This document shows, one piece after another, positions 26,145 through 38,423 of a stretch of DNA of 64,000 bases. The translations under genes and the position numbers were made by a program. The stretch is from the NCBI GenBank assembly GCA_964396185.1, contig CAYNEI010000013.1, positions 1,528 to 65,527 on the forward strand. Direction: 5' to 3'. The DNA comes from an uncultured Thermoplasmatales archaeon (GTDB lineage: Archaea > Thermoplasmatota > SW-10-69-26). Under the pieces are notes generated by a model. It was not told the origin of the DNA, did no database searches, and saw only the letters and a list, made by a program, of their open reading frames with translations. Numbering within the stretch: the first letter of the stretch is position 1; every line of letters starts with the position of its first letter.

Positions 26145-27080
26145 TCAGTGGTCGTAGACTTCGTCCAACGACACACTCGGGCGAGGGCCCCAGTCGATGG
26201 TCACATCGAAACCGGTGTAGTGGACCGCAGCGGTGTGGCCGCGCGCACCTGGCAGGGGATCGTGGTGGTGGGTGCCGGTGTGCTCGAAGTAGCCTTGGCC
26301 GCGGGCGACGAGGTGCTCGCCGGGTGTCGTGGTCAGGTCGAGCGCGATGGGCGGGCGGGTGTCGTTGCCTGCGTGGCCTTGGGCCCACAGGCGGGTGAGA
26401 TCGGCAGGCCGGTCACCCAGGGGCTGAACGGGATAGGTCGAGCGGTAGGCCCCGTTCCCGTCGGTGGCCATCCGGATGTCCACCAGGTCCTGCTCGACCA
26501 CCAGTTCAGCCGACATGCCCATGGCCGGGATGCCGACGGCCTGCAGGCGCTCGAGCAGCTCCTCTTCGTTCGTGGCGAGAACCGTGACGAGGTACTCGTC
26601 GTCAGCGCGCGTGGTCGCGAAGCTGGGTGTCTCGACCTTGGGGCCGACGAAGCCGAGCATCAGCTCGCTTCGCTCCTCTCCGTCCAGGGTCCACTGCTCG
26701 CAGGTGAGCGTTGCATGGTAGTGGCCCCAGGTCTCCCCCTCCTCCGGGACGGGGTGCATGGGATCCGGGATCTCGCTGTACGTCACCTGTGGCCCCGTGT
26801 CCTCGAGCACGTCGGCCACCTGCCAGGGCTCTGGCACGACGTCAGCCAGCTCGAAGAGGCCTGCCACCTCGCGTGGGTGGACGCTATGACCACCGCCCTG
26901 GGTGCAGGTGGTGCCAGTGAGGGAGAGGGATGGTGGGATGCTGGATGGATCGGTGGCCGGGCCGCTGGCTGCATCGACTGGCTGGATGGCTTCCTCGTCT
27001 CCGGGCTCGTCGGTGGCCAGGCAGCCGGCCAGCGCGGGAGCGGTGAGCAGGAGGAGGGCTAGGCCGGCGGTGGCTCGCAT
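26145..27080 (-). CDS. Secreted lipoprotein, unknown function
   Basis: MRATAGLALLLLTAPALAGCL lipobox-like signal. Confidence 0.75.
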   Translation of the reverse strand: MRATAGLALLLLTAPALAGCLATDEPGDEEAIQPVDAASGPATDPSSIPPSLSLTGTTCTQGGGHSVHPREVAGLFELADVVPEPWQVADVLEDTGPQVTYSEIPDPMHPVPEEGETWGHYHATLTCEQWTLDGEERSELMLGFVGPKVETPSFATTRADDEYLVTVLATNEEELLERLQAVGIPAMGMSAELVVEQDLVDIRMATDGNGAYRSTYPVQPLGDRPADLTRLWAQGHAGNDTRPPIALDLTTTPGEHLVARGQGYFEHTGTHHHDPLPGARGHTAAVHYTGFDVTIDWGPRPSVSLDEVYDH

Positions 27081-27239
27081 CGACGGATGAGTGGATCGCC
27101 CTCTTAAGCAGGTTGTGGCGGGGGTGTTGAAGGGATCGACAGGCGGTCTAGACGATCGCGCCTGTCGAGGAGGAGACGCATGGGCCGGGGCCGGGCTCCC
27201 TACCGGGTCGAGCTCAGCCCATCCCATCCATAGACGAAT

Positions 27240-27644
27240 TTAGAGCGCATCCAAGCCGGCTTGGTAGATGCCCTCGATGAGTTCTACGGCCTCAGCATCG
27301 CTGATCCCTGCAGGCTCGAAGGTCCCCTCCCACTCCACCACGCTGCCATCACCGTCGGCGCGGACCTGGAACGTCGCGCGGTAGTCCTTCACAGGGAGAG
27401 GTGACTCCTCGAAACGGTACGAGTAGGAACGTTCGTTCCGCTCCAGAAGCTTCTCGACGATGACGGCGCCGTCGCCCAGGGTCAGCGTCCTGACCGAACC
27501 GTCCTCGGATACATCCGTGGACTTGACCGCGGGATGCCACTCGTGGATCGACCCCCAGCCGCCTACGCGACCCCAAAGGTCGTCGGCTGACCGTTCGAAC
27601 TTCCTTGAACGCTTCGCTTGACTCAACTGTATCACTTCATCCAT
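27240..27644 (-). CDS. SRPBCC / polyketide cyclase-like protein
   Basis: LW..VGGW..IHEWHPAV, VRTLTLGDG..IVEKL, SPLPVKDY.ATF.V. Confidence 0.85.
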   Translation of the reverse strand: MDEVIQLSQAKRSRKFERSADDLWGRVGGWGSIHEWHPAVKSTDVSEDGSVRTLTLGDGAVIVEKLLERNERSYSYRFEESPLPVKDYRATFQVRADGDGSVVEWEGTFEPAGISDAEAVELIEGIYQAGLDAL

Positions 27645-27728
27645 GGGGAGCGGCTTGCCATCCCGGTCGCCCACCGTGAGATAGGTCGGACGAGTATATC
27701 TCGCTGACTGGTCATCGAACTTCGTTCG

Positions 27729-28208
27729 TCACGGGTTTTCGGACCGGTGTCGACGACCAACGTCCCAGGCGGCAGTCGCGCAGGCGGCGACCATGAGTAC
27801 GTTGCCCGGTTGCCACCACCACGCCCCGAGGTCGGCGTACACCCAGATCAGGCTCGCGAACCCCGCCAGGGCGAGGCCCCATCGCTGCGGCAGCACCGAG
27901 CCCCGCCAGGCGCCTCCAGCGGCCACCACAGCTCCTGTGGCGAAGAGCAACCCCGCGACGTTGTAAACGCTGGACCACAGGTCACCACGGTAGAACATGG
28001 CGATGCCAACCGCCACTGCGAGCAAGCCCACGGGGATGAGAGCGGTCCGTTCACTGTGCTCGCCGCGTGCCGAGACCGAGAAGCCGATCACGATCACCGC
28101 CAAACTCAAGACGGTCCAACCGTCCGGGACACCGGCGACCACCGCTACGATCCAGAGCAAGGCTGCGACCGCTGCAAGACCGAGCCCCAAAACGTAGCGT
28201 GAACGCAT
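27729..28208 (-). CDS. Membrane protein (about 6 TM helices)
   Basis: Hydrophobic throughout; promoter-like motif shared with the 27080 gene. Confidence 0.65.
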   Translation of the reverse strand: MRSRYVLGLGLAAVAALLWIVAVVAGVPDGWTVLSLAVIVIGFSVSARGEHSERTALIPVGLLAVAVGIAMFYRGDLWSSVYNVAGLLFATGAVVAAGGAWRGSVLPQRWGLALAGFASLIWVYADLGAWWWQPGNVLMVAACATAAWDVGRRHRSENP

Positions 28209-28378
28209 GGCCCACACGAGGGACGGTGGGATAAGCAGGTTGTGGATGGCTCCTTGAAATGAACGGGGGTTCTGGCTTGAAGACGCGCAACGCCATCGTC
28301 ATCTCCGGAGGGCCGGGCGAACACGTTGTAGCATCGCGTTGATGGTCCGGTGGATGAGCAGGTCGAGCCGGGTCGATG

Positions 28379-29674
28379 TTATGGGAGCATGCCCGACGCA
28401 GACCACCCGACAGCGATCTTCGGTTCGCCGCTCCTGGGATCGCTCATCGCCCACCAGACCTTGCCGTCCGCACCCACGGCGATGCCACCGTACTCGTCGC
28501 CAGCTCCCGTGCCGCGCGGCGGAGGCTGGTCGACGGGCCCGGCGAGCTGGATCGTTCGGATCGTCCCGTTGGTCGCCAAGGTGACGAGCTCGGCCCCCCA
28601 CACCGCGTCGCCCTCAGCGCGCCCATACGTCGCAAGCACGTGCAGCGCGCCGTCCGGTCCTTGGGTTGCAACGTTCCACACATAGGAGCCTTCGGGTGCT
28701 CCATCCGTGAGCGTCTCGGGCGCGCTCCATGAGGCCCCGGCGTCGGTGCTTTTTGCACGAAGAAGTCCGGAAGCCGGGAATGCCGCCAGATCCAGACGCG
28801 ATCCGTCACCGCCCAGGGCGCTCATGTCCCCGATCCACGCGCCGCCGCCGGGGAAGACCATGTGCCCAGACTCGAAGGTCGTCCCCGCGTCGCGGCTGAC
28901 AACCGCGTGCAAACCGGACGAGCTCTTCGCCGTGATGACGACGACCCCGTCTGGGTAGGCCGCGACCCGGGGCCAGAACGTTCGGTATTCGCCCAGGAAC
29001 GCGTTCAGCGGCAGCGGTGCCGACCACGTTGCGCCCTCGCCATCGCTGGTCCAGAACCACAAACCGCCGCCCTGCAGGGGGCCCGCCCCGGCCACGACAA
29101 AAAGCGCTCCTGTGTCGGGCGCGACGGCGAGGTCCATCGCATCCCAGGTCAGCACGCCCAAGTTGTGCGGGATCTGGGTGAGCGTCCACGTCGCGCCGGC
29201 GTTGGAGCTGCGGACCACGAGGATGTTGGACTCTGTGGGGAACCGCGTCTCGCCGAAGAGGACGAGTGCGTCCCCGTTGGGCGCGAAGGCGGCGATCGGG
29301 TCGAAATGCCATGAGCCTGCGGCGAGGTCCTTGGAATTCGTCTTTTGCCAGGTCTGACCGGCGTCCGTGGTAACCGCGAGCCACACGGTCCACGCTCCGG
29401 GGACGTTCTCGATCCACGCAACCAGGGCCGTATCTGGGTCCGTCGGATGGGTCGCGAGCGAAACCTCGCGATCAGGATGCTCGCCTGCGTTGAGGATCAT
29501 GGCGCACGGACGGGTCGATTCGGGCTGCTCGGCGTTCGATCGGGTGCATACGCTGGCCCTCGCATCTGTTTCGACCCTGGGGGCTCCACCCTTATCATCT
29601 GATGCAGCCTGGTCCCCGAGGCAGCCAGAGAAGCCGACGGTCACGAGCAAGAGCACAAGCGCCACGCCTTTCAC
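28379..29674 (-). CDS. Lipoprotein with BNR/Asp-box beta-propeller (sialidase-like fold)
   Basis: GFSGCL lipobox; Asp-boxes TTDAGQTW, SSNAGATW, SDGEGATW, SRDAGTTF, STDAGASW. Confidence 0.85.
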   Translation of the reverse strand: MKGVALVLLLVTVGFSGCLGDQAASDDKGGAPRVETDARASVCTRSNAEQPESTRPCAMILNAGEHPDREVSLATHPTDPDTALVAWIENVPGAWTVWLAVTTDAGQTWQKTNSKDLAAGSWHFDPIAAFAPNGDALVLFGETRFPTESNILVVRSSNAGATWTLTQIPHNLGVLTWDAMDLAVAPDTGALFVVAGAGPLQGGGLWFWTSDGEGATWSAPLPLNAFLGEYRTFWPRVAAYPDGVVVITAKSSSGLHAVVSRDAGTTFESGHMVFPGGGAWIGDMSALGGDGSRLDLAAFPASGLLRAKSTDAGASWSAPETLTDGAPEGSYVWNVATQGPDGALHVLATYGRAEGDAVWGAELVTLATNGTIRTIQLAGPVDQPPPRGTGAGDEYGGIAVGADGKVWWAMSDPRSGEPKIAVGWSASGMLP

Positions 29675-29838
29675 GACATCTCCGCCACTCGCCTTCGGAC
29701 CGCGAATCGTACTGCCTCCGACCCTCCATATGTGTTGCCCCATCGATGAATCATGCTCCTTCTCCGCATCCACTGGCCGAGGCGGCGGAACGCCCGGCCG
29801 TCCGGCGGTGGGGGCAGGGGCACGTGTGGATTACCACC

Positions 29839-30924
29839 TCAGAACCCATGCCGGTCCATCCACTCCAGGACAGCACGATGCACTTCCCGGTGATTGAGGT
29901 GGTGGAACACGGCGTGCCCCGTGTCCGGGAGCAGGAGGAGTTCGAAGTCCGCGTTCGGGTAGTGTTCCCCTTGTTGGTGCTGGTCCTCGCCCTCGTAATA
30001 GAAGTCCTCATCACCGAGGATGTTGAGAACAGGCACGTCGATCCGGGTGGTCACCTGGTTGTCGGGCCTCAACGACGCGGGCCGCGCGTCGTCCAAGGGC
30101 CGAAGCTCGTACACCCAACATCCCGCACACGCCGTCCAAACACCGAAGCTGGCGCCGACTGTGAAAGGCATGGGTGAGCCGTCGTACTCTTCCTCCCAGG
30201 CGTCGATCACGGCGGGGTCCACATTATCGAAGTGCAGCATCCACACCTGCCAGTCTTCCGGGCAATCGTCCGTCGTGTAACTCCAGCAACGATCCGCTTC
30301 ATCGGAGAAACGGCCATGGGACCAAGCCGTGGGAACGATCCCGTCGAAGGATGCGAACAGGCCCTGGGTCATGTCCGTGAGAAGACCGCCCATGGAGATG
30401 CCGGAACCCACCACGGTGTCGTGGGCGCGGGCGTCGGCCGCGGGACCGGTGACGTAGTCTCCGCTGCGCAGAGCATCCGCGACTTGGTCGATGACGAACG
30501 CGTAGTCCTCCAAACCGACAAGCCCGTCCATGCCGGGCGTGTCGCCGTACCCAGGAAGGTCGATGGCGACCGCGGTACGGCCGCTCGTGGTGAGCATGTG
30601 GGCAACAGAGTAGCCGGGGGCGGTGAGGGGTCCGAAGAGCCCCATCCTCCCGCCACCAGAGCCGTGGATCAGAAGCACCACCGCGTCCGCATCCCGGGCC
30701 TCCCACATCGCGCCCGCCACGTCCACCTCGCCGCCAGCGCGCGTCTGGACCCGGAACGTCGCTTGCACGTGGGGAGCGGACTCGTCCACGTCGTCGAGGA
30801 GCCCTGCCGGATCTGCGGGGTCTTCCGTCTCGAGCGCGTCGGGGGTGAGACAGCCTGCGAGGGCAGGAATGATGAGTAGGGCTACGATGATTCCAGCATT
30901 CTTCAAGACCACGACCTCCTCCAT
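29839..30924 (-). CDS. Lipoprotein alpha/beta hydrolase
   Basis: LAGCL lipobox, LIHGSGG, IDLPGYG, GISMG nucleophile elbow, GDED, TGH. Confidence 0.85.
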   Translation of the reverse strand: MEEVVVLKNAGIIVALLIIPALAGCLTPDALETEDPADPAGLLDDVDESAPHVQATFRVQTRAGGEVDVAGAMWEARDADAVVLLIHGSGGGRMGLFGPLTAPGYSVAHMLTTSGRTAVAIDLPGYGDTPGMDGLVGLEDYAFVIDQVADALRSGDYVTGPAADARAHDTVVGSGISMGGLLTDMTQGLFASFDGIVPTAWSHGRFSDEADRCWSYTTDDCPEDWQVWMLHFDNVDPAVIDAWEEEYDGSPMPFTVGASFGVWTACAGCWVYELRPLDDARPASLRPDNQVTTRIDVPVLNILGDEDFYYEGEDQHQQGEHYPNADFELLLLPDTGHAVFHHLNHREVHRAVLEWMDRHGF

Positions 30925-31081
30925 TTCGAGGGCGACCCAAGCCAAGGCGCCGTCGATCCGTGCAGGGATAGGTAGCCCAACAACTATTTCTTGGTTTGGG
31001 TGCTCGAATCGACTGCGGGGCCCGTTCCTGGGACCGGCCTGTCGCCGGTCGCATCATAGAAGTCGATCGCATGGCGTGATG

Positions 31082-31139
31082 GGATAACGGCAGAGGTCAG
31101 CCGCTGCCGAAGGCGGTCGGCCGGACCGAGATGTTCTAC
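31082..31139 (-). mobile_element. Integron attC-like site (58 bp)
   Basis: Minus strand GTAGAAC-5nt-GGTCCGGC...GCTGACC-6nt-GTTATCC; extrahelical G and T in canonical positions. Confidence 0.75.
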
Positions 31140-31290
31140 TGAGGGGCAGTGCACACCTGGGTAGATTCTCCCATTGTCCACGCAAGCTGGTGAAGGCCGT
31201 CGCGACGAGAAGAAAGGAGATGAGAAGGAGGTCGAAGTCCGCGTTCGGGTGCTGAGGAATGTCCTTCGCGCTTTCGATTCGTTCATACTC

Positions 31291-32943
31291 CTATCGGCCT
31301 GCGTCCCCGATGAGCGGCAGCACCGTCCGCCACGCCCCCTCCCAGTCGGTCCCGCCCATGAGCCGGAGGGCCTCCGCGACCTCGGAGGCGTCTGCGTGAC
31401 CGGCATGCACAGCCTGCTGCACGGCATGGCCGGCACGGTTGCGGGCGAAGTTCGTTTGGTCCGCGACGCCGAAGTCGATGGTGCGCTCCAGCGTCTGGTA
31501 TCCCATGGTGCTCCAGGTGCTGGAGAAGGTCAAGGAGAACTGCGGGTACCAGAGCCACTCGGGGTCGTCGTAGGGCTCGAGGTACGCATGAGGATGAGCC
31601 AGGCCGAGAAGATGCCCTGTCTCGTGGCTGAGGAGCATGTTGGCGTAGTCATAGGCGCCTCGGGAAGCGTCCCGGTCCTCGAAGCGGTGCAGGTCTGTGA
31701 TCTGGCTGAAGCTTACGCGCCGGTCCGCGTTGACGTCATAGTACGCGTACCCGGTCGAGGTGCGGCTGTCCGCGGCGTCGCCGAAGAGAATGAAACTCAC
31801 GTACGCTTCGCAGCCTGCGTGTTCCACCCAATAGCGCTCCCAGTTGGCGTCCATCCACTCCCGGTAGACGTCGCCGTGGCCCTCCATGTGGAGGCCGCCC
31901 ATCAGGAGCAGCGTGTGCGAGTTGGAACGGGAGACGGCGTCCAAGCCGGGGTCGTCCAAGGGGAGATCGAGTAAGACGGCGTCCACGCGCACGTCCCCTC
32001 TCGTGGCGTTCACAAGGGTGGCCCGCAGCCGCTCGGCGTCCACAAGGTCGGCCGCCCTCGGCGTGCCGGGAGCGATCTCGGATGCGCTCGTGGATCGCAC
32101 GCCCACGACGAGCGTGACGGCGTGGCACGGCGCCGTCGAGACCGGGAACGTGGGCCCTTGGAGGAGGCGGTAGTTGGCGGCTTCCCGCGTCGCCTCCACG
32201 ACGGCGGCCACAGTGGACTCGCCGCCGGGTCCCAGGGGCTCGTCGTGGGCGCGGGTCTCCAAGTCCCACGATTCGGTCGTGTCGTGGACCCATGGGTCCT
32301 CGCGTGCGGATATGTCGAGCACGAGCACGGGATGGCGCTCACCGAAGACGCGCACGGGCTCGAGCCACCCGTTCGCGTACTTGTAGCGGAAGGCGTGGGA
32401 TCCCCAGTCCCCATCCGGGTCTCCATGCACGAGGACGAGGGCCGGCGCGCCGGGATCGACAGGCACGCCAAGGACGGGGAGGGTGTCGGCGAACCAGTCC
32501 TCGATGGCGTTCGCGTCGTACGTTTGGCCCGCGTCCGTGACGGATGCGTCGAGGGCGTGGCGGTAGGCGTCGACCACGTCGGGCCCCGCCTCGTGGACCA
32601 CGAAGCGAGCGGTGGGTACAACAGACGGGGGAATCACGGTCCCGTAGGTTTCAGGGTCGTCCGGCAGCCCGATCTTGCCGGACGTGAGGGCCACGTGAGT
32701 GATCTTCTCGTCGTTGAGCCGCTCGTCGACCTCATCCGCGACGCCCTCGTCGAAGCCGATGAGGACGACTTGCACGTCCACGTCCACTGCAACGGCACCG
32801 TCGTCGAGGAGTTGGGCGGCGGGGTCTCCGTCCTGCGACGCCGACGGCTCGGTGTCCCCCGCGTTCAGGCACCCGGCGAGGACGGTGATGAGGAGGACCA
32901 CGGCGATCGCCGACGCGAGACCCGGCGGGCGTCCCCGTCGCAC
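31291..32943 (-). CDS. Lipoprotein zinc metalloprotease (metzincin)
   Basis: LAGCL lipobox; HETGHLLGLAH (HExxHxxGxxH); STMGY Met-turn. Confidence 0.8.
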   Translation of the reverse strand: MRRGRPPGLASAIAVVLLITVLAGCLNAGDTEPSASQDGDPAAQLLDDGAVAVDVDVQVVLIGFDEGVADEVDERLNDEKITHVALTSGKIGLPDDPETYGTVIPPSVVPTARFVVHEAGPDVVDAYRHALDASVTDAGQTYDANAIEDWFADTLPVLGVPVDPGAPALVLVHGDPDGDWGSHAFRYKYANGWLEPVRVFGERHPVLVLDISAREDPWVHDTTESWDLETRAHDEPLGPGGESTVAAVVEATREAANYRLLQGPTFPVSTAPCHAVTLVVGVRSTSASEIAPGTPRAADLVDAERLRATLVNATRGDVRVDAVLLDLPLDDPGLDAVSRSNSHTLLLMGGLHMEGHGDVYREWMDANWERYWVEHAGCEAYVSFILFGDAADSRTSTGYAYYDVNADRRVSFSQITDLHRFEDRDASRGAYDYANMLLSHETGHLLGLAHPHAYLEPYDDPEWLWYPQFSLTFSSTWSTMGYQTLERTIDFGVADQTNFARNRAGHAVQQAVHAGHADASEVAEALRLMGGTDWEGAWRTVLPLIGDAGR

Positions 32944-33191
32944 CTTCCCAATCGGTCGCGCCCGTGATATGTAGAGCTCGTTCCATCCCTGGGGTGGCCG
33001 TGGGCCATGCCGTGAAGACTGGATGCACGGCGTTCCCGGCGCAGAAGAAGCCCCGTGCCACCACCCGGCTCCCCACGTCACAATTCGCAGGTGACGAGCT
33101 ACTTGTTATATGTTTCCCGTGTTCGCGTTGGAATTGGCGTTCTCTGGCGGTTTCGTTCCATCGCGTCGAAGGATGCCACCATGGCACCTTC

Positions 33192-33251
33192 GTATAACGG
33201 TCAAGCTCAGCGGACGGCCGAAGGCCATTCAGCGGGGTCGACATGTGCGGT
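33192..33251 (-). mobile_element. Degenerate attC-like site (60 bp)
   Basis: Plus strand GTATAAC-6nt-GCTCAGC-gg-acggcc gaa ggcc; other arm has the right spacing but many substitutions; 16 bp from stop of upstream gene. Confidence 0.5.
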
Positions 33252-33266
33252 GGGAGAATTCGATGA

Positions 33267-34538
33267 TCAGGCCACCGTGGCCATTTTCTCCATTATTTGC
33301 TCTTCGATCTGGTTTGCGTGGCCTGGGCCCAAACCCAGAACCTTCTGGAGACGCAGTAGCGCACGACGTTCCTTTACACTGATCTGGCCATCCGCGGCTA
33401 AACTCTCCACCTGTGCCCGATAGATCGTTGCCCGGCGCTCAACACGGTAGGCGTGGGAGTCTTGTACGTTGGGCATGGCACGCTCACTGATTCGTTGGGC
33501 GAGGCTCTGTAGGGGTGCGATGGCGAAAACGAGAGCGCCGGCGGCGAGGATGCCGACATACTGCGACCCGAGGGTCTCGCCGAAGAACTGCTGCGCAGCC
33601 TCGCTCGCCACGAAGAAGACTGCAATGAAGACGGCTGCCATTGTGCCCCGATTGATTGTCCATTTAAGTTTGAGGTCCAAGTCGATGAGGTTGTAACGAG
33701 CCACAGCATAGAGGATCAGGAAGACGAAGACATAATCCACATAGTAATGTACGATTCCCGTCCCCGTGCGATCGAGGACCTGAAGGAGAGTGAGTGGTAG
33801 CAGGTAGAGACTCACGAAGGCGAGCGCCCGCTCGTCCGGCGTGGGGTTGCCTCTGATGACGCGAGCCATCGCGATACCCACGAGGACCAAGGCCGTCAAC
33901 ATCGCGAGGAAGGATGTAGCCAACACCGCCTGGTAGGGGGGGTCTGTATAGACCCGGGTCCAGTGCCAATGGAGGGCGAAGAGGTGGGGATAAACAACAT
34001 CGAAGAGCCCGTGATGGAGATTCACGAAGATGAATGGGAGAAGACCCCATGCGATCTGTATGCGATGGGGCCCGGGGGGACTATTTAGCCAGCGGGCGCC
34101 AAGAAAGACCAGGACAAGTAGGAACATCAGGCTGCTTGTGAGGAAAAATGTGGCCCACCAGATGGATGTAGCCTCTCCCTCTTGGAAAAAGAGCCCCGGG
34201 CTAGATAGCACGAACCCGAGGAGGATCGCAACGGCCGCCCCGGTCGAGCCGAGCATGATGATGTGCCAGCGTTCCAGGATCACACGGGGATAAACGATCC
34301 CGAAGGCCAAAGCGGCTCCTGAATGGAGTACGGCCATAAGGAGCGCTGCTATATGGGCAAAACCGGGATCGACACCAGGGAACTTGTCAGACATCAGAAG
34401 TAGGAACATCATTCCATAGAACAACACCGCGAGGCCAAGGAAGAGCCCCCCAAGTGTCCGTCGTGCGAGCCAGATCAGTACAACGCCGGCTAAAATGACG
34501 AGTATCGTGAGGACAGCGAAGAGGATCCACATCGCCAT
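33267..34538 (-). CDS. Polytopic membrane protein with TerB-like C-terminal domain; lower GC
   Basis: About 9 hydrophobic helices; C-terminal YRAQVESLAADGQISVKERRALLRLQKVLGL; more A/T at third codon positions than neighbours. Confidence 0.75.
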   Translation of the reverse strand: MAMWILFAVLTILVILAGVVLIWLARRTLGGLFLGLAVLFYGMMFLLLMSDKFPGVDPGFAHIAALLMAVLHSGAALAFGIVYPRVILERWHIIMLGSTGAAVAILLGFVLSSPGLFFQEGEATSIWWATFFLTSSLMFLLVLVFLGARWLNSPPGPHRIQIAWGLLPFIFVNLHHGLFDVVYPHLFALHWHWTRVYTDPPYQAVLATSFLAMLTALVLVGIAMARVIRGNPTPDERALAFVSLYLLPLTLLQVLDRTGTGIVHYYVDYVFVFLILYAVARYNLIDLDLKLKWTINRGTMAAVFIAVFFVASEAAQQFFGETLGSQYVGILAAGALVFAIAPLQSLAQRISERAMPNVQDSHAYRVERRATIYRAQVESLAADGQISVKERRALLRLQKVLGLGPGHANQIEEQIMEKMATVA

Positions 34539-34764
34539 GGCAGCGCACCCCGTTCACCGCACACGGGCGTCCGGCACCCTCCGCGACACCATGCACCTAA
34601 ATAAAGGCATATGTTGTCCCTCGGTCTCTTATTCAAGACGTACGGTTCCTCAACCATGCGAACCGGGTGTCCGTCGTTCCCGTACTACCGACTACCCTGA
34701 CTTGGTCCAGATGCGATCCGATTGCGATTCCTCAATACTTGACACCTCCATCATCCATCTTGTC

Positions 34765-34820
34765 GCCGAACGTTGGAGCTCAGCGGCGCGCAGCGCGTCT
34801 GCTGGAGCGAGTTGTCCGGC
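34765..34820 (-). mobile_element. Integron attC-like site (56 bp)
   Basis: Minus strand GCCGGAC-AACTC-GCTCCAGC...GCTGAGC-TCCAAC-GTTCGGC; 7/5/8...7/6/7 architecture with extrahelical G and T. Confidence 0.8.
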
Positions 34821-34882
34821 GTCCCGGGGTCAGCGACGGCCATGTTACCTTGCTGGAGCCCTGTGCGCTCCCGATCGGGGAG

Positions 34883-35665
34883 TCAGTTCGGTGGTTGGTA
34901 TGCGGCTGACCAGCCAAAGCGTGGAACGGCGATGCCCAGGCTGGTCGTCGCTTCGCCAGCGATCTCATCGGCAAGCGTGCCAGAATCCCATGTGGCTTGC
35001 ACGCTTCCGGCTTGCACATCCGCAGTCACGTCATAGTCAAACCAGGATGGCCCCTGCGGGGTGATGTGCCAGAAGCGGCTTAAGCCCTCCAAGCTACTTG
35101 GCGCCAAACCCACAACCTCCAGACTGTACTCCTGCACATCTGTTCGAACGTCGCTGGCCATCGGTACGCCTGCAGCGACGGCCACATCGCCCGCGATCGT
35201 ATTCCAACCATCAGCAATCAGCATATCGAGTTCAGGACCTGCGGGCAGGACCAGTTGTGCCAGATAGTAATGGGCATCTACCGGAGCGTTGTCTAGTTCG
35301 GGGTCCTCAACGAGGATGTTGATCTCAGCCCCGACGAAAGTGCCGTTGGTGGCCACATGCTCGTCGCACGCGTACGCAGTTAGCAGAGCCGCTCCTTCTC
35401 CGACTGGGGCGGGCGCACCCAGAAGCCCCGCGGCATCAGCCGGCCTGAAGCCGTCAGGCAAGAACGTCTCTAAGTGGTTGAAAGGAACAACGAAAGCACC
35501 TACAGCAAGGCTACAACCGGTGGCACCCCAGTCCACGGACTCCTGCAGCGTGCGATCTTCGGAGGTCCTCTCGGAAGATGGATCATGATCCTCCGCGCCT
35601 CGATCGGAGTGCAGGCAACCCGCCAACAACAACATCGTCACCAGAGCCACCGACACCCACTTCAT
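34883..35665 (-). CDS. Secreted lipoprotein, unknown function
   Basis: MKWVSVALVTMLLLAGCL lipobox. Confidence 0.75.
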   Translation of the reverse strand: MKWVSVALVTMLLLAGCLHSDRGAEDHDPSSERTSEDRTLQESVDWGATGCSLAVGAFVVPFNHLETFLPDGFRPADAAGLLGAPAPVGEGAALLTAYACDEHVATNGTFVGAEINILVEDPELDNAPVDAHYYLAQLVLPAGPELDMLIADGWNTIAGDVAVAAGVPMASDVRTDVQEYSLEVVGLAPSSLEGLSRFWHITPQGPSWFDYDVTADVQAGSVQATWDSGTLADEIAGEATTSLGIAVPRFGWSAAYQPPN

Positions 35666-36029
35666 GGACTCTAGATTAGGGCGGTGTACTTCAAATGTCT
35701 CTCACCAGCATACCAGATGAACAGAACACCACCATCGGCCGGTGCCAGCTGGCTTCGGCAGATATCCAACCTTGCCTTCCACGGGAGGTAGAACCCTTGA
35801 CGCCGAACTTGTCCGTCACCGGTGTTCCGGGTATCCTGACGCCGCCATGATCCTCGGCGTGACCCATGTGCGGGACTGAACCCTCTCCTGCCAGCCGTCT
35901 AGGTGCCGTTTCGAGCACTCTCAACCACCCACCCCGGGAACTGATCCTGCCGCACCCCAACCAGGCCGTCCATATTCTCCCGCGACTGGCCAGCCCAGTT
36001 CAAGGCCTCCTTGGCCACCCGCAGGAGCG

Positions 36030-36460
36030 TAGATCCTATCTCCCGTTCGCAATCAGTTCAGCGATCTTGCCGAACCTCCACACAGTTGGCGCGGTTCGGC
36101 CGCTCGCGGACTCGATCCTACGCCCTCTGCGAGATCACGTCCGCGATCTGCCCGAACATCCGCGTGGTTGGCGCGTTCGGACGCTCGCGAGCCTGATCCT
36201 ACGCTCTTTGCGCGATCAGGCTCGCGATATCCCCGGGGAAATCCGCCACCTCCACGCCGGCCGGAGTGACTGGAGACTTGCCGCAGCGTGCGTGGCGCTG
36301 CGGCCAGTCTCCAGATACGGACGCACCACCGCTTCGTTGGGGCGGCGGCGCGTCCTATCCGCAAGGCGGGCGCTCCGCATCGCGGATTTCCCTTCAGTAG
36401 CGGAACTGATCCTATGCACGCTGTGCGATCAGTTCCGCGATGTCGCCAGGGAAGTCCGCG
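36030..36460 (-). repeat. Array of diverged copies of the sucD 3' end, each folded into a hairpin
   Basis: Units at about 36032, 36114, 36195 and 36408; minus-strand translations ...[37 protein letters not shown], and native IAELIAQRA*. Confidence 0.75.
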
Positions 36461-37281
36461 ACCTCCACGCCCGCCTTGCGGAACGCCTCGATCTTGGACT
36501 CCGCCGTGCCCTTGCCTCGGCTCACGATGGCTCCGGCATGCCCCATCTGCTTGCCCGTGGGCGCGGATCGGCCGGCGATGTAGCCGTAGACCGGCTTGTC
36601 CACGTGCTCCTGGATGAAGGCGGCTGCCTCCTCCTCGGCGGTGCCGCCGATCTCGCCGACGACCACGATGTGCTCGGTCTCGTCGTCGGCCTGAAAGAGC
36701 TCGAGGGCGTCCACGAACGTGGTACCGGGGCACGGGTCGCCGCCGATGCCGATGCAGGTGGATTGGCCGATGTCGTTCTCCGTGAGCGCACCGACGAGCT
36801 CGTACGTGAGGGTGCCTGAGCGGGAGACGATGCCCACGTTGCCCGGAGCGAAGATACGGTTGGGCAGGATGCCGAGCTTGGTCTGCTCGGTGGGCGAGCA
36901 GACGCCGGGGCAGTTGGGCCCGAGCACACGAGCACCCTTGTAGGTCGCGTAGTGGCTGAAGATCACCGCATCGTGCGGGGGGATGTGCTCCGTGATGACG
37001 TTGACCAGCTCGATGCCTGCGTCCAGCGCCTCCAAGGCTGCGTCCCTGGCGAAGCGAGCGGGCACGAAGACGACGCTGGCGTTGGCGTCGGTCTCGTCCA
37101 CGGCTTGCTGGACGGCGTCGAAGACGGGCAGGTCGTTGACCACTTGACCCCCCTTGCCTGGCGTGACGCCTCCGACGACGTTGGTGCCGAAGTCCATCAT
37201 GGACTGGCTGTGGAACTGGCCTTGGTACCCGGTGATGCCTTGCACGATCACGCGGGTGTCCTTGCCGACCATGACGGCCAT
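36412..37281 (-). CDS. sucD: Succinyl-CoA synthetase alpha subunit
   Basis: [44 protein letters not shown]. Confidence 0.97.
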
Positions 37282-38423
37282 CACGCACCACCTCCGTTGG
37301 TGCCGGCTGCTTCGTTCCTGAGCTTCACGGCGAGCTGGGCGGCCTCCTTGGGGTCCTGGGTGGCTTCGACACCTGCGGCCTCGAGGATCTCGCGCGCCTT
37401 CTCCTCGTTGACCCCACGGATGCGGGTGACCAGAGGCACATCCAGGCCTTCTTCCTCGAGGACCTGGACGACGCCCTTGGCCACCGTGTCAGCCTTGGTG
37501 ATGCCGCCGAAGAGGTTGAGGAAGACGACCGACGGGTTGGCCTTCTTCATGAGCCGGAAGCAGGTCATGACCTTCTCGGGCGAGTCCGTGCCGCCGAGGT
37601 CCAGGAAGACGCCACCGTTGCCGCCGTAGTGCTCGAGCGCGTCGAGGGTGGCCATGGTGAGCCCGGCGCCGTTGGCGATCACACCGATATCGCCGTCGAG
37701 CTGGACGAAGGCGATGCCCTTCTCCTGGGCCTCCTTCTCCAAGGCGGTCAGGTCCTCCTCGCCGCCCTCGATGTCCGGGTGGCGGAAGGTGGCTGCGTCG
37801 TTGATGCTGACCTTGGCATCCGCGGCGACGACCTTGCCCTCGCCGGTGATGGCCAAGGGGTTGATCTCCACGAGATCCGCGTCGCTTTCGAGGTAGGTGG
37901 TGTAGAGCTTGGAGAGGATGCTGGTGACCTGCTTGGCCTGATCCTTGTCCAGGCCAAGGTTGCCCACCAGGTGGCGGGCGTGGTAGGAGGAGAACCCGGT
38001 GAAGGGGTGGACGGTCATCTTGTGGATCTTGTCGTCCGGCACCGACTCGATGTCCACGCCGCCCTCCGCGCTGATCATGACCATGGGGAGCCTGCTGGAG
38101 CGGTCCAGCAGGACCGAGGCGTAGAGCTCCTGGGCGAAGTCGAGCATCTCGACCAAGAACACCTTCTCCACCGTGAGGCCCTTGATCTCCATGCCCAGGA
38201 TGTTGTCCAGGTGCTCACGGGCCTCATCCGCGTTGTCAGCGAACTTGACGCCGCCGGCCTTGCCGCGCCCGCCGGTGAGGACCTGGGCCTTGACCACGAC
38301 CGGGTAGGGGAGATCGTCCTTGACGGCCTCGAACTCCTCGACCGACGAGACCACAACACCCTCCGGGGCCGGGATCCCGAACCGCGTGAAGAGATCGCGC
38401 CCCTGGTACTCGTAGAGCTTCAT
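37281..38423 (-). CDS. sucC: Succinyl-CoA synthetase beta subunit
   Basis: [46 protein letters not shown]. Confidence 0.97.

Follow-up and report, generated by a model that had tools for sequence, protein, structure and literature searches.

A cluster of attC sites without an adjacent integrase downstream of sucCD in an uncultured Thermoplasmatales archaeon

attC-derived sites in the window

The 64,000-nucleotide stretch of DNA analysed here (the window) belongs to an uncultured Thermoplasmatales archaeon (GenBank assembly GCA_964396185.1, contig CAYNEI010000013.1, positions 1,528 to 65,527 of the forward strand) and carries a series of minus-strand genes interspersed with sites that resemble attC, the recombination site of integron gene cassettes. 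Read along the minus strand, the order is sucC, sucD (38495–36412), a stack of degenerate sucD 3'-end copies, a lipoprotein gene (P0003), attC site 3, a membrane-protein gene (P0002), site 2, a metzincin-like lipoprotein gene (P0001), site 1 and P0004. The sites lie at 34765–34820 (site 3, attC3), 33192–33251 (site 2, attC2) and 31082–31139 (site 1, attC1). An earlier reading of the sequence (the original prediction) had placed three attC sites of shared orientation at these positions, each downstream of a minus-strand gene. Re-reading the sequence bore this out: all three sites are on the minus strand in one orientation, and the gaps from the preceding stop codon are 62 nt (site 3, lipoprotein gene), 15 nt (site 2, membrane-protein gene) and 151 nt (site 1, metzincin-like gene).

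Sites 3 and 1 share the layout R''(7)-5-L''(8, one base bulged)-loop-L'(7)-6-R'(7). The minus-strand sequence of site 3 is GCCGGAC-AACTC-GCTCCAGC-AGACGCGCTGCGCGCC-GCTGAGC-TCCAAC-GTTCGGC, with R'' = GCCGGAC, L'' = GCTCCAGC, L' = GCTGAGC and R' = GTTCGGC; with the bulged bases bracketed, it reads GCCGGAC / AACTC / GCT[C]CAGC / AG[A]CGCGC-TGC-GCGCC / GCTGAGC / TCCAAC / GTTCGGC. The second bulge, an A two positions inward, is a T on the opposite, recombining strand. Site 1 follows the same layout with the sequence GTAGAAC-ATCTC-GGTCCGGC-...-GCTGACC-TCTGCC-GTTATCC (R'' = GTAGAAC, L'' = GGTCCGGC, L' = GCTGACC, R' = GTTATCC). The core-site pattern (R'' RYYYAAC, R' GTTRRRY) is present in site 1 as GTAGAAC/GTTATCC and in site 3, which keeps the GTT of R' and has an R'' ending in GAC, one change from AAC. 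In alignment to the covariance model described below, both sites form the L''/L' helix with two extrahelical bases and an unpaired central spacer of 5/6 nt. The 5' half of site 2 does not form this helix: its complementarity to the 3' half is lost, and it has a degenerate R'' (ACCGCAC). That 3' half (33192–33211), GCTGAGC-TTGACC-GTTATAC, is intact and consensus-like. The exact attC layout with an extrahelical G and T, claimed at the outset for all three sites, thus holds for sites 3 and 1 and not for site 2, which had rightly been called degenerate.

Site identity was assessed with a strict layout scanner, a covariance model and a half-site matrix. The scanner was validated on 80 bacterial loci encoding relatives of this genome's integron integrase, where it returned 101 matches per Mb on the expected side and strand versus 7.5 per Mb elsewhere. 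Over both strands of the 3.17-Mb genome, five matches reached or exceeded the threshold; two of the five were sites 3 and 1, site 3 being a joint best match. The remaining matches (contigs C8, C19 and C90), as well as a paralogue array on contig C39, were not attCs under the covariance model. A loose first version of the scanner had given hundreds of matches, was uninformative and was replaced by the strict one.

The covariance model (R1) was seeded with 35 attCs found beside bacterial intI genes, with the variable loop trimmed and no window sequence included. Its seed consensus, GCCnAAC...GTTAGGC, is that of a textbook attC, and the bulged A is conserved in at least 90% of the seed alignment. 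Site 3 scored 61.4 bits (E = 1.3e-13 in the window, 6.3e-12 genome-wide) and site 1 scored 39 bits (E = 8e-8 in the window, 3.9e-6 genome-wide); site 2 gave no match, and nothing in the rest of the window scored better than E = 0.4. Genome-wide, R1 had only four matches, namely sites 3 and 1 and two sites on contig C54 (see below). Among 41 related archaeal genomes, 34 had no match at E ≤ 1e-3, and since these genomes are likewise of high GC content, high GC gives no false positives under the model. The position matrix for L'-spacer-R' was applied to 6.33 million 20-mer positions of the genome. The 3' half of site 2 ranked first (23.8 bits) and site 3 second; ranks three and four were taken by the two C54 sites, and site 1 came sixth. 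No Rfam family matched the sites, searches by gathering threshold and by E-value returning only tRNAs and noise. Single-strand folding energies of the three sites did not differ significantly from those of shuffled sequence (z = –2.3 to +1.2), a measure that is uninformative here because attCs are imperfect hairpins.

We conclude that all three sites are attC-derived, two of them intact and one with a decayed 5' half. The distance between attC3 and attC1 is 3,626 bp, with the half site between them and no intI nearby, and the locus is therefore an attC-site cluster that lacks integron integrases (CALIN) as operationally defined (two or more attCs separated by less than 4 kb, without intI nearby; Ghaly et al., 2022, PMC9668308). 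The attC/CALIN reading of the original prediction thus passed both an independent covariance-model test and the operational definition. A complete integron is not present at this locus, as neither intI nor attI is adjacent.

At the upstream end of the array, the sequence G|TTCGGC (35802–35808, minus strand; 6.8 bits) is a weak candidate for the partner site of the first cassette. Its R' box is that of site 3, cognate to the R'' of site 3, and it is the sole R-box-like 8-mer in 35600–36120. Elsewhere, 80 nt past the R' of site 2, an element at 33092–33111 (minus strand; ATATAAC-AAGTA-GCTCGTCA) resembles an attC 5' half, with a score that is not significant (12.9 bits). Its R'' would be cognate to GTTATAT, and it overlaps a TATA-like patch upstream of the metzincin-like gene.

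The integron integrase and attC sites elsewhere in the genome and class

In agreement with the original prediction, tblastn of the 64-kb window (E ≤ 1) detected no tyrosine recombinase. A search of the genome for intI found a full-length IntI of 400 aa at the right end of another contig (G000 contig C12:65483–66893; L001 1495–2908). It scored 403.8 bits against the NCBI integron-integrase model TIGR02249 (cut-off 265), above which none of 14 control genomes had a match. Its alignment with VchIntIA (PDB 2A3V; E = 3.6e-74) spans the full length and takes in the IntI-specific segment near patch III, where LPAALERKYANAATEWPWFWAFPA aligns with VchIntIA; by these features the protein is a member of the IntI group. 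Besides this IntI, tblastn of the genome bin with IntI and two Xer-like recombinases of relatives found no tyrosine recombinase.

Contig C12 stops ~200 bp beyond the start of the intI gene, and two contigs from other assemblies (L091 and L092), which encode the identical protein, extend further. The extension contains three GTTATC repeats and an attI-like simple site, GAATAAC-AA-GTTATCC, followed by an inverted RHH-PIN toxin–antitoxin cassette and then by an attC of 58.7 bits. Inverted toxin–antitoxin pairs are common in large chromosomal integron arrays. This attC has the R'' GGATAAC, exactly complementary to the GTTATCC of the attI junction, which is what insertion of a cassette at attI should produce. 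With the extension in L091 and L092, the end of C12 forms a complete integron. The gene for the archaeal-type release factor aRF1 (eRF1 domains) lies on the same contigs as IntI. The end of C12 has no k-mer overlap with any other contig of the genome, and the next cassette in L092 was not found in the genome bin.

The second attC cluster of the genome is at the start of contig C54 (G000 C54:375–1336; L123). Its two attCs (28.3 and 36.2 bits) separate a DUF5677 gene from a RibD_C gene, after which core genes follow; the cassettes encode an AbiEii-like fragment, a DUF5677 protein and a RibD_C protein. This cluster may form the distal terminus of the C12 array, a link that sequence overlap did not reveal. 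The R' boxes of window sites 1 and 2 (GTTATCC and GTTATAC) are of the local GTTATNC type and not of the general GTTAGGC type, that of site 1 being identical to the junction box at the genome's attI, which suggests that they belong to the same system as the resident integron. Both the IntI contig and the CALIN contig are present in sequencing runs SRR12687321 and SRR12687281. The array had been described as a relic or as remotely served; with an IntI in the same genome, service in trans would be possible.

Similar sites were found in related archaea. R1 attC matches occurred in 6 of 21 genomes of the class, the window's own genome included (the others being G008, G011, G012, G015 and G010), and the 20 other genomes of the phylum yielded one single match. 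Metagenome contigs scanned for the exact attC3-type pattern had no match. In G008, six to seven co-oriented attCs lie within 5 kb without an IntI (G008:C50:53349–58362; L117 9350–14363). Across 22 attCs of the class, 89.8% of cells were paired and compensatory changes were present in 13 of 20 pairs; none of 500 shuffles reached the observed covariation. Pairing was weaker in the R''/R' helix (76%) than in the inner helix (96%), as would be expected because the R' boxes in arrays are hybrids of neighbouring cassettes.

An IntI tree (L001, L002, L005, L003 and L011–L090) grouped the IntI of this genome with two of G012 (support 99). This clade is ~50–55% identical to bacterial IntIs, among which the tree does not resolve its position. 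The IntI of G039, of the same phylum, has 38% identity and sits on a long branch elsewhere in the tree, so that archaeal IntIs may not all derive from one acquisition.

Cassette genes, chromosomal setting and reading of the array

The three cassette genes are all on the minus strand. P0003 (34883–35665) encodes a 260-aa lipoprotein with the lipobox LLAGC, P0002 (33267–34538) a multi-pass membrane protein of 423 aa whose C-terminal ~150 aa form a conserved domain, and P0001 (31291–33081) a lipoprotein of 550–596 aa with the zinc motif HETGHLLGLAH. The labels "metzincin" and "TerB-tailed", given to P0001 and P0002 from sequence, proved weak, their basis being the zinc motif and sub-threshold Pfam matches: Matrixin and M7 at the zinc motif of P0001, and for P0002 sub-threshold matches only (DUF533, E = 0.11). 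The GC content at third codon positions is 0.64 in P0003, 0.69 in P0002 and 0.85 in P0001, compared with ~0.9 in core genes (sucCD), and only 1–2% of genome windows are as GC-poor as P0003 and P0002. The latter two genes are foreign in composition, and P0001 is host-like. From their low third-position GC content, P0003 and P0002 were probably acquired from a lower-GC member of the class.

Homologues of the cargo proteins were confined to one archaeal class. Paralogues and homologues of P0001 (36–44% identity) occur solely within it. The P0002 family, whose members share the conserved C-terminal ~150 aa, is likewise class-restricted, often forms tandem arrays and reaches up to 29 copies per genome (in G012); members were located in the same genome (C39:14717–21102, C28, C58 and C155) and in relatives (G007:C15, G004:C55 and G012). 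P0003 has weak homologues confined to the class in the genome set, and its closest homologue, the only close one, is on a metagenome contig (61% identity). P0003-like lipoprotein genes adjoin P0002-family members on C39 and in two other genomes. None of the three proteins had homologues in ~40 other genomes of the phylum outside the class. The archaeal character ascribed to the cargo is thus upheld, and the data are compatible with an integron having captured native archaeal genes. Upstream of P0002, ~60 nt before the start codon, a TATA-like box consisting of A/T only (CCTTTATTTAGG; 34596–34607, minus strand) is a putative promoter element, and the cargo genes seem to keep their own promoters. 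Because no Pc promoter is nearby, each cassette gene is probably expressed from its own archaeal promoter.

The host and the placement of the array are archaeal on several grounds. The genome is taken as archaeal because it contains ribosomal protein L31e, a search for which matched only the four archaeal controls, and because the window encodes a geranylgeranylglyceryl phosphate (GGGP) synthase above the equivalog cut-off. The sites are >30 kb from either end of the 65.6-kb contig. Where the window has ~9 kb after sucCD, two genomes of the same family have ~2 kb of unrelated genes, beyond which come homologues of the window genes at 21.6–27.2 kb; no attC was found at this locus in the relatives. 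Window positions 27.3–36.4 kb thus form a variable region with syntenic archaeal flanks. Across the sucD-cassette junctions, contigs of three separate sequencing runs match the window at 100% identity, and chimeric assembly is ruled out by this identity of independent assemblies.

We consider it likely that positions 31082–35808 are a CALIN in an archaeal chromosome, placed in the variable region just downstream of sucCD and served by an IntI in trans. The bottom strand (the plus strand of the window), when single-stranded, would fold into an imperfect hairpin, as bacterial attCs do. IntI would recognise the R and L boxes, the unpaired central spacer and the two extrahelical bases (G and T), cut the R' box at G|TT (top strand), and exchange strands with another attC, attI or a secondary genomic site, with the integrase supplied in trans from the C12 integron of the same genome. 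With the 5' half of attC2 lost, P0002 and P0001 would behave as one fused unit of ~3.6 kb between attC3 and attC1, and attC3 × attC1 recombination would release them together as a ~3.6-kb circle. Most likely, the array either was inserted by IntI at a secondary attG-like genomic site, as has been shown for bacteria, or came in as a block together with the variable region; by either route, we infer an IntI-mediated arrival. As judged from sequence, the resident IntI may still act on the array. Low or no current activity is suggested by an A·C mismatch in attC3, the decay of site 2 and the lack of variants in the three assemblies.

Several observations weigh against this reading. IntI is on another contig of a metagenome-assembled genome, and the assembly does not show its linkage or distance to the window array. 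Site 2 fails the full R1 model, with no match at E ≤ 10 in the window. The R'' of attC3 ends in GAC, not AAC, so that the conserved triplet is mismatched (A·C) on the bottom strand, which may lower activity. The upstream boundary of the first cassette is a weak candidate only. The cassettes are large, with a spacing of 1.5–2.1 kb compared with 0.5–1.5 kb in the array of the related genome G008. The loci of cargo homologues in relatives, and the metagenome contig with the homologue of 61% identity, are never beside an attC. Variation in cassette order, to which the original prediction had looked as a check, was not seen: the three independent assemblies contain no cassette rearrangement, deletion or alternative order.

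Some of these observations would also fit real attCs that arrived passively, the 9-kb segment being a genomic island or its remnant, formed by repeated integration of some other recombinase into the sucD 3' end, and the attCs being fossils from a donor's integron that the resident IntI never served. Displaced copies of the sucD 3' end are indeed stacked at the junction, the variable region (~27.3–36.4 kb) exceeds the CALIN, contigs of two relatives break within the sucD 3' end, site 2 is decayed, the R'' triplet of attC3 is mutated, and no structural variation was seen among the three assemblies. However, no integrase or other mobility gene was found in 27–36 kb, sites 1 and 2 have R' boxes of the resident integron's GTTATNC type and not of the GTTAGGC consensus, and two sites are still near-consensus, which is unexpected for old fossils. 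Such an island is therefore an improbable, though by no means negligible, origin for the array.

Two further explanations are effectively refuted. That the integron-like DNA is bacterial and was misbinned or chimerically assembled into an archaeal genome is suggested by the overwhelmingly bacterial distribution of integrons and by the closest IntI relatives outside the class, which are all bacterial (~50–55% identity). It is very hard to reconcile with a GGGP synthase and archaeal synteny on both sides of sites that far from the contig ends, a junction spanned by three independent assemblies, class-restricted cargo families and aRF1 on the IntI contig. Even less credible is the explanation that the sites are chance GC-rich hairpins or transcription terminators resembling attC. 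The sites do lie just past stop codons, where terminators are expected, and fold no better than shuffled sequence (z from –2.3 to +1.2); against this stand E values of 1e-13 and 8e-8 under a model trained on bacterial attCs only, a genome-wide total of four matches, the absence of any match from 34 of 41 related high-GC genomes, bulged bases and a 5/6-nt unpaired spacer at the canonical positions, and a site 2 3' half at the top of 6.33 million positions.

The locus fits the archaeal integrons and CALINs first described in 2022 and represents no new kind of element. Ghaly et al. (2022, Sci Adv, PMC9668308) reported integrons from 75 metagenome-assembled genomes of archaea, mostly as CALINs and with six integrases. 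The archaeal attCs shared the fold of bacterial ones, IntI1 recombined them in E. coli, the few IntIs had the IntI-specific segment, some genomes had intI on one contig and attC clusters on others, and the cassette cargo was enriched in signal-peptide proteins. The present case is alike in its attC clusters mostly without adjacent intI, its bacterial attC fold, and its intI and clusters on separate contigs. It differs in that the contigs of both the CALIN and the IntI also carry archaeal marker genes and syntenic core genes, a situation found for ~7% of the genomes of that study, and in that the cargo consists of large genes from class-native paralogue families, seemingly with their own promoters. 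Small bacterial CALINs have been proposed to arise from cassette insertion at 5'-GWT-3' genomic (attG) sites (bioRxiv 10.1101/2022.09.11.507474). As in those, a small attC cluster lies here far away from intI, neither a transposon nor an intI pseudogene is nearby, and IntI could act in trans; the evidence there is bacterial and experimental, whereas here it is a weak candidate junction, G|TTCGGC at 35802–35808, known from sequence. The genome's own integron resembles the Vibrio cholerae superintegron (VchIntIA, PDB 2A3V) in its integrase (E = 3.6e-74) and in having an inverted toxin–antitoxin pair as the first cassette at attI. In contrast to sedentary chromosomal integrons, the window locus lacks an integrase, attI and Pc, has three cassettes, and its attCs are not near-identical repeats.

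Together, the full IntI with its attI-like site and first cassette, the C54 cluster and the chromosomal CALIN between syntenic core genes make a well-anchored archaeal case, to which the attC arrays in five other genomes of the class add. The lineage is suited to work on archaeal integron function and on cassette movement between and within domains. The class-native cargo is a lead, and no more than a lead, on cassette origin. One could read it as cassette birth or capture in Archaea, attCs having become joined to class-native surface- and membrane-protein genes whose families are never attC-linked in relatives, keep their own promoters and normally stand in tandem paralogue arrays; we regard this as improbable. 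The evidence that native archaeal genes become cassettes here is circumstantial. If it were true, a resident integron could shuffle native surface-protein genes, and the origin of cassettes would be testable in this lineage.

Neighbouring sequence features

On the upstream side of the variable region, the last syntenic core gene is sucD, encoding the succinate–CoA ligase alpha subunit (36412–37284, minus strand; NCBIfam NF004230, 421 bits). An exact look-up of sucD gave no match, probably owing to a different start-codon call. On the downstream side of site 1, P0004 (29839–30945, minus strand) encodes an alpha/beta-hydrolase-like lipoprotein with a weak Hydrolase_4 match. No attC follows P0004, as neither R1 nor the half-site matrix had a match in 27000–31000.

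Between sucD and the array, the stack at 35936–36460 repeats the last ~60 nt of sucD four to five times in degenerate form, the copies folded as hairpins and each ending in TAG and an inverted repeat. It is not part of the attC system. Within it, at 36069–36100, is a perfect GCCGAAC-18 nt-GTTCGGC inverted repeat with the same R-box letters as attC3 and no L boxes (12 bits, E = 0.7). The contigs of two relatives (G001:C22 and G003:C321) break inside the sucD 3' end, and given these breaks the stack may be shared with them.

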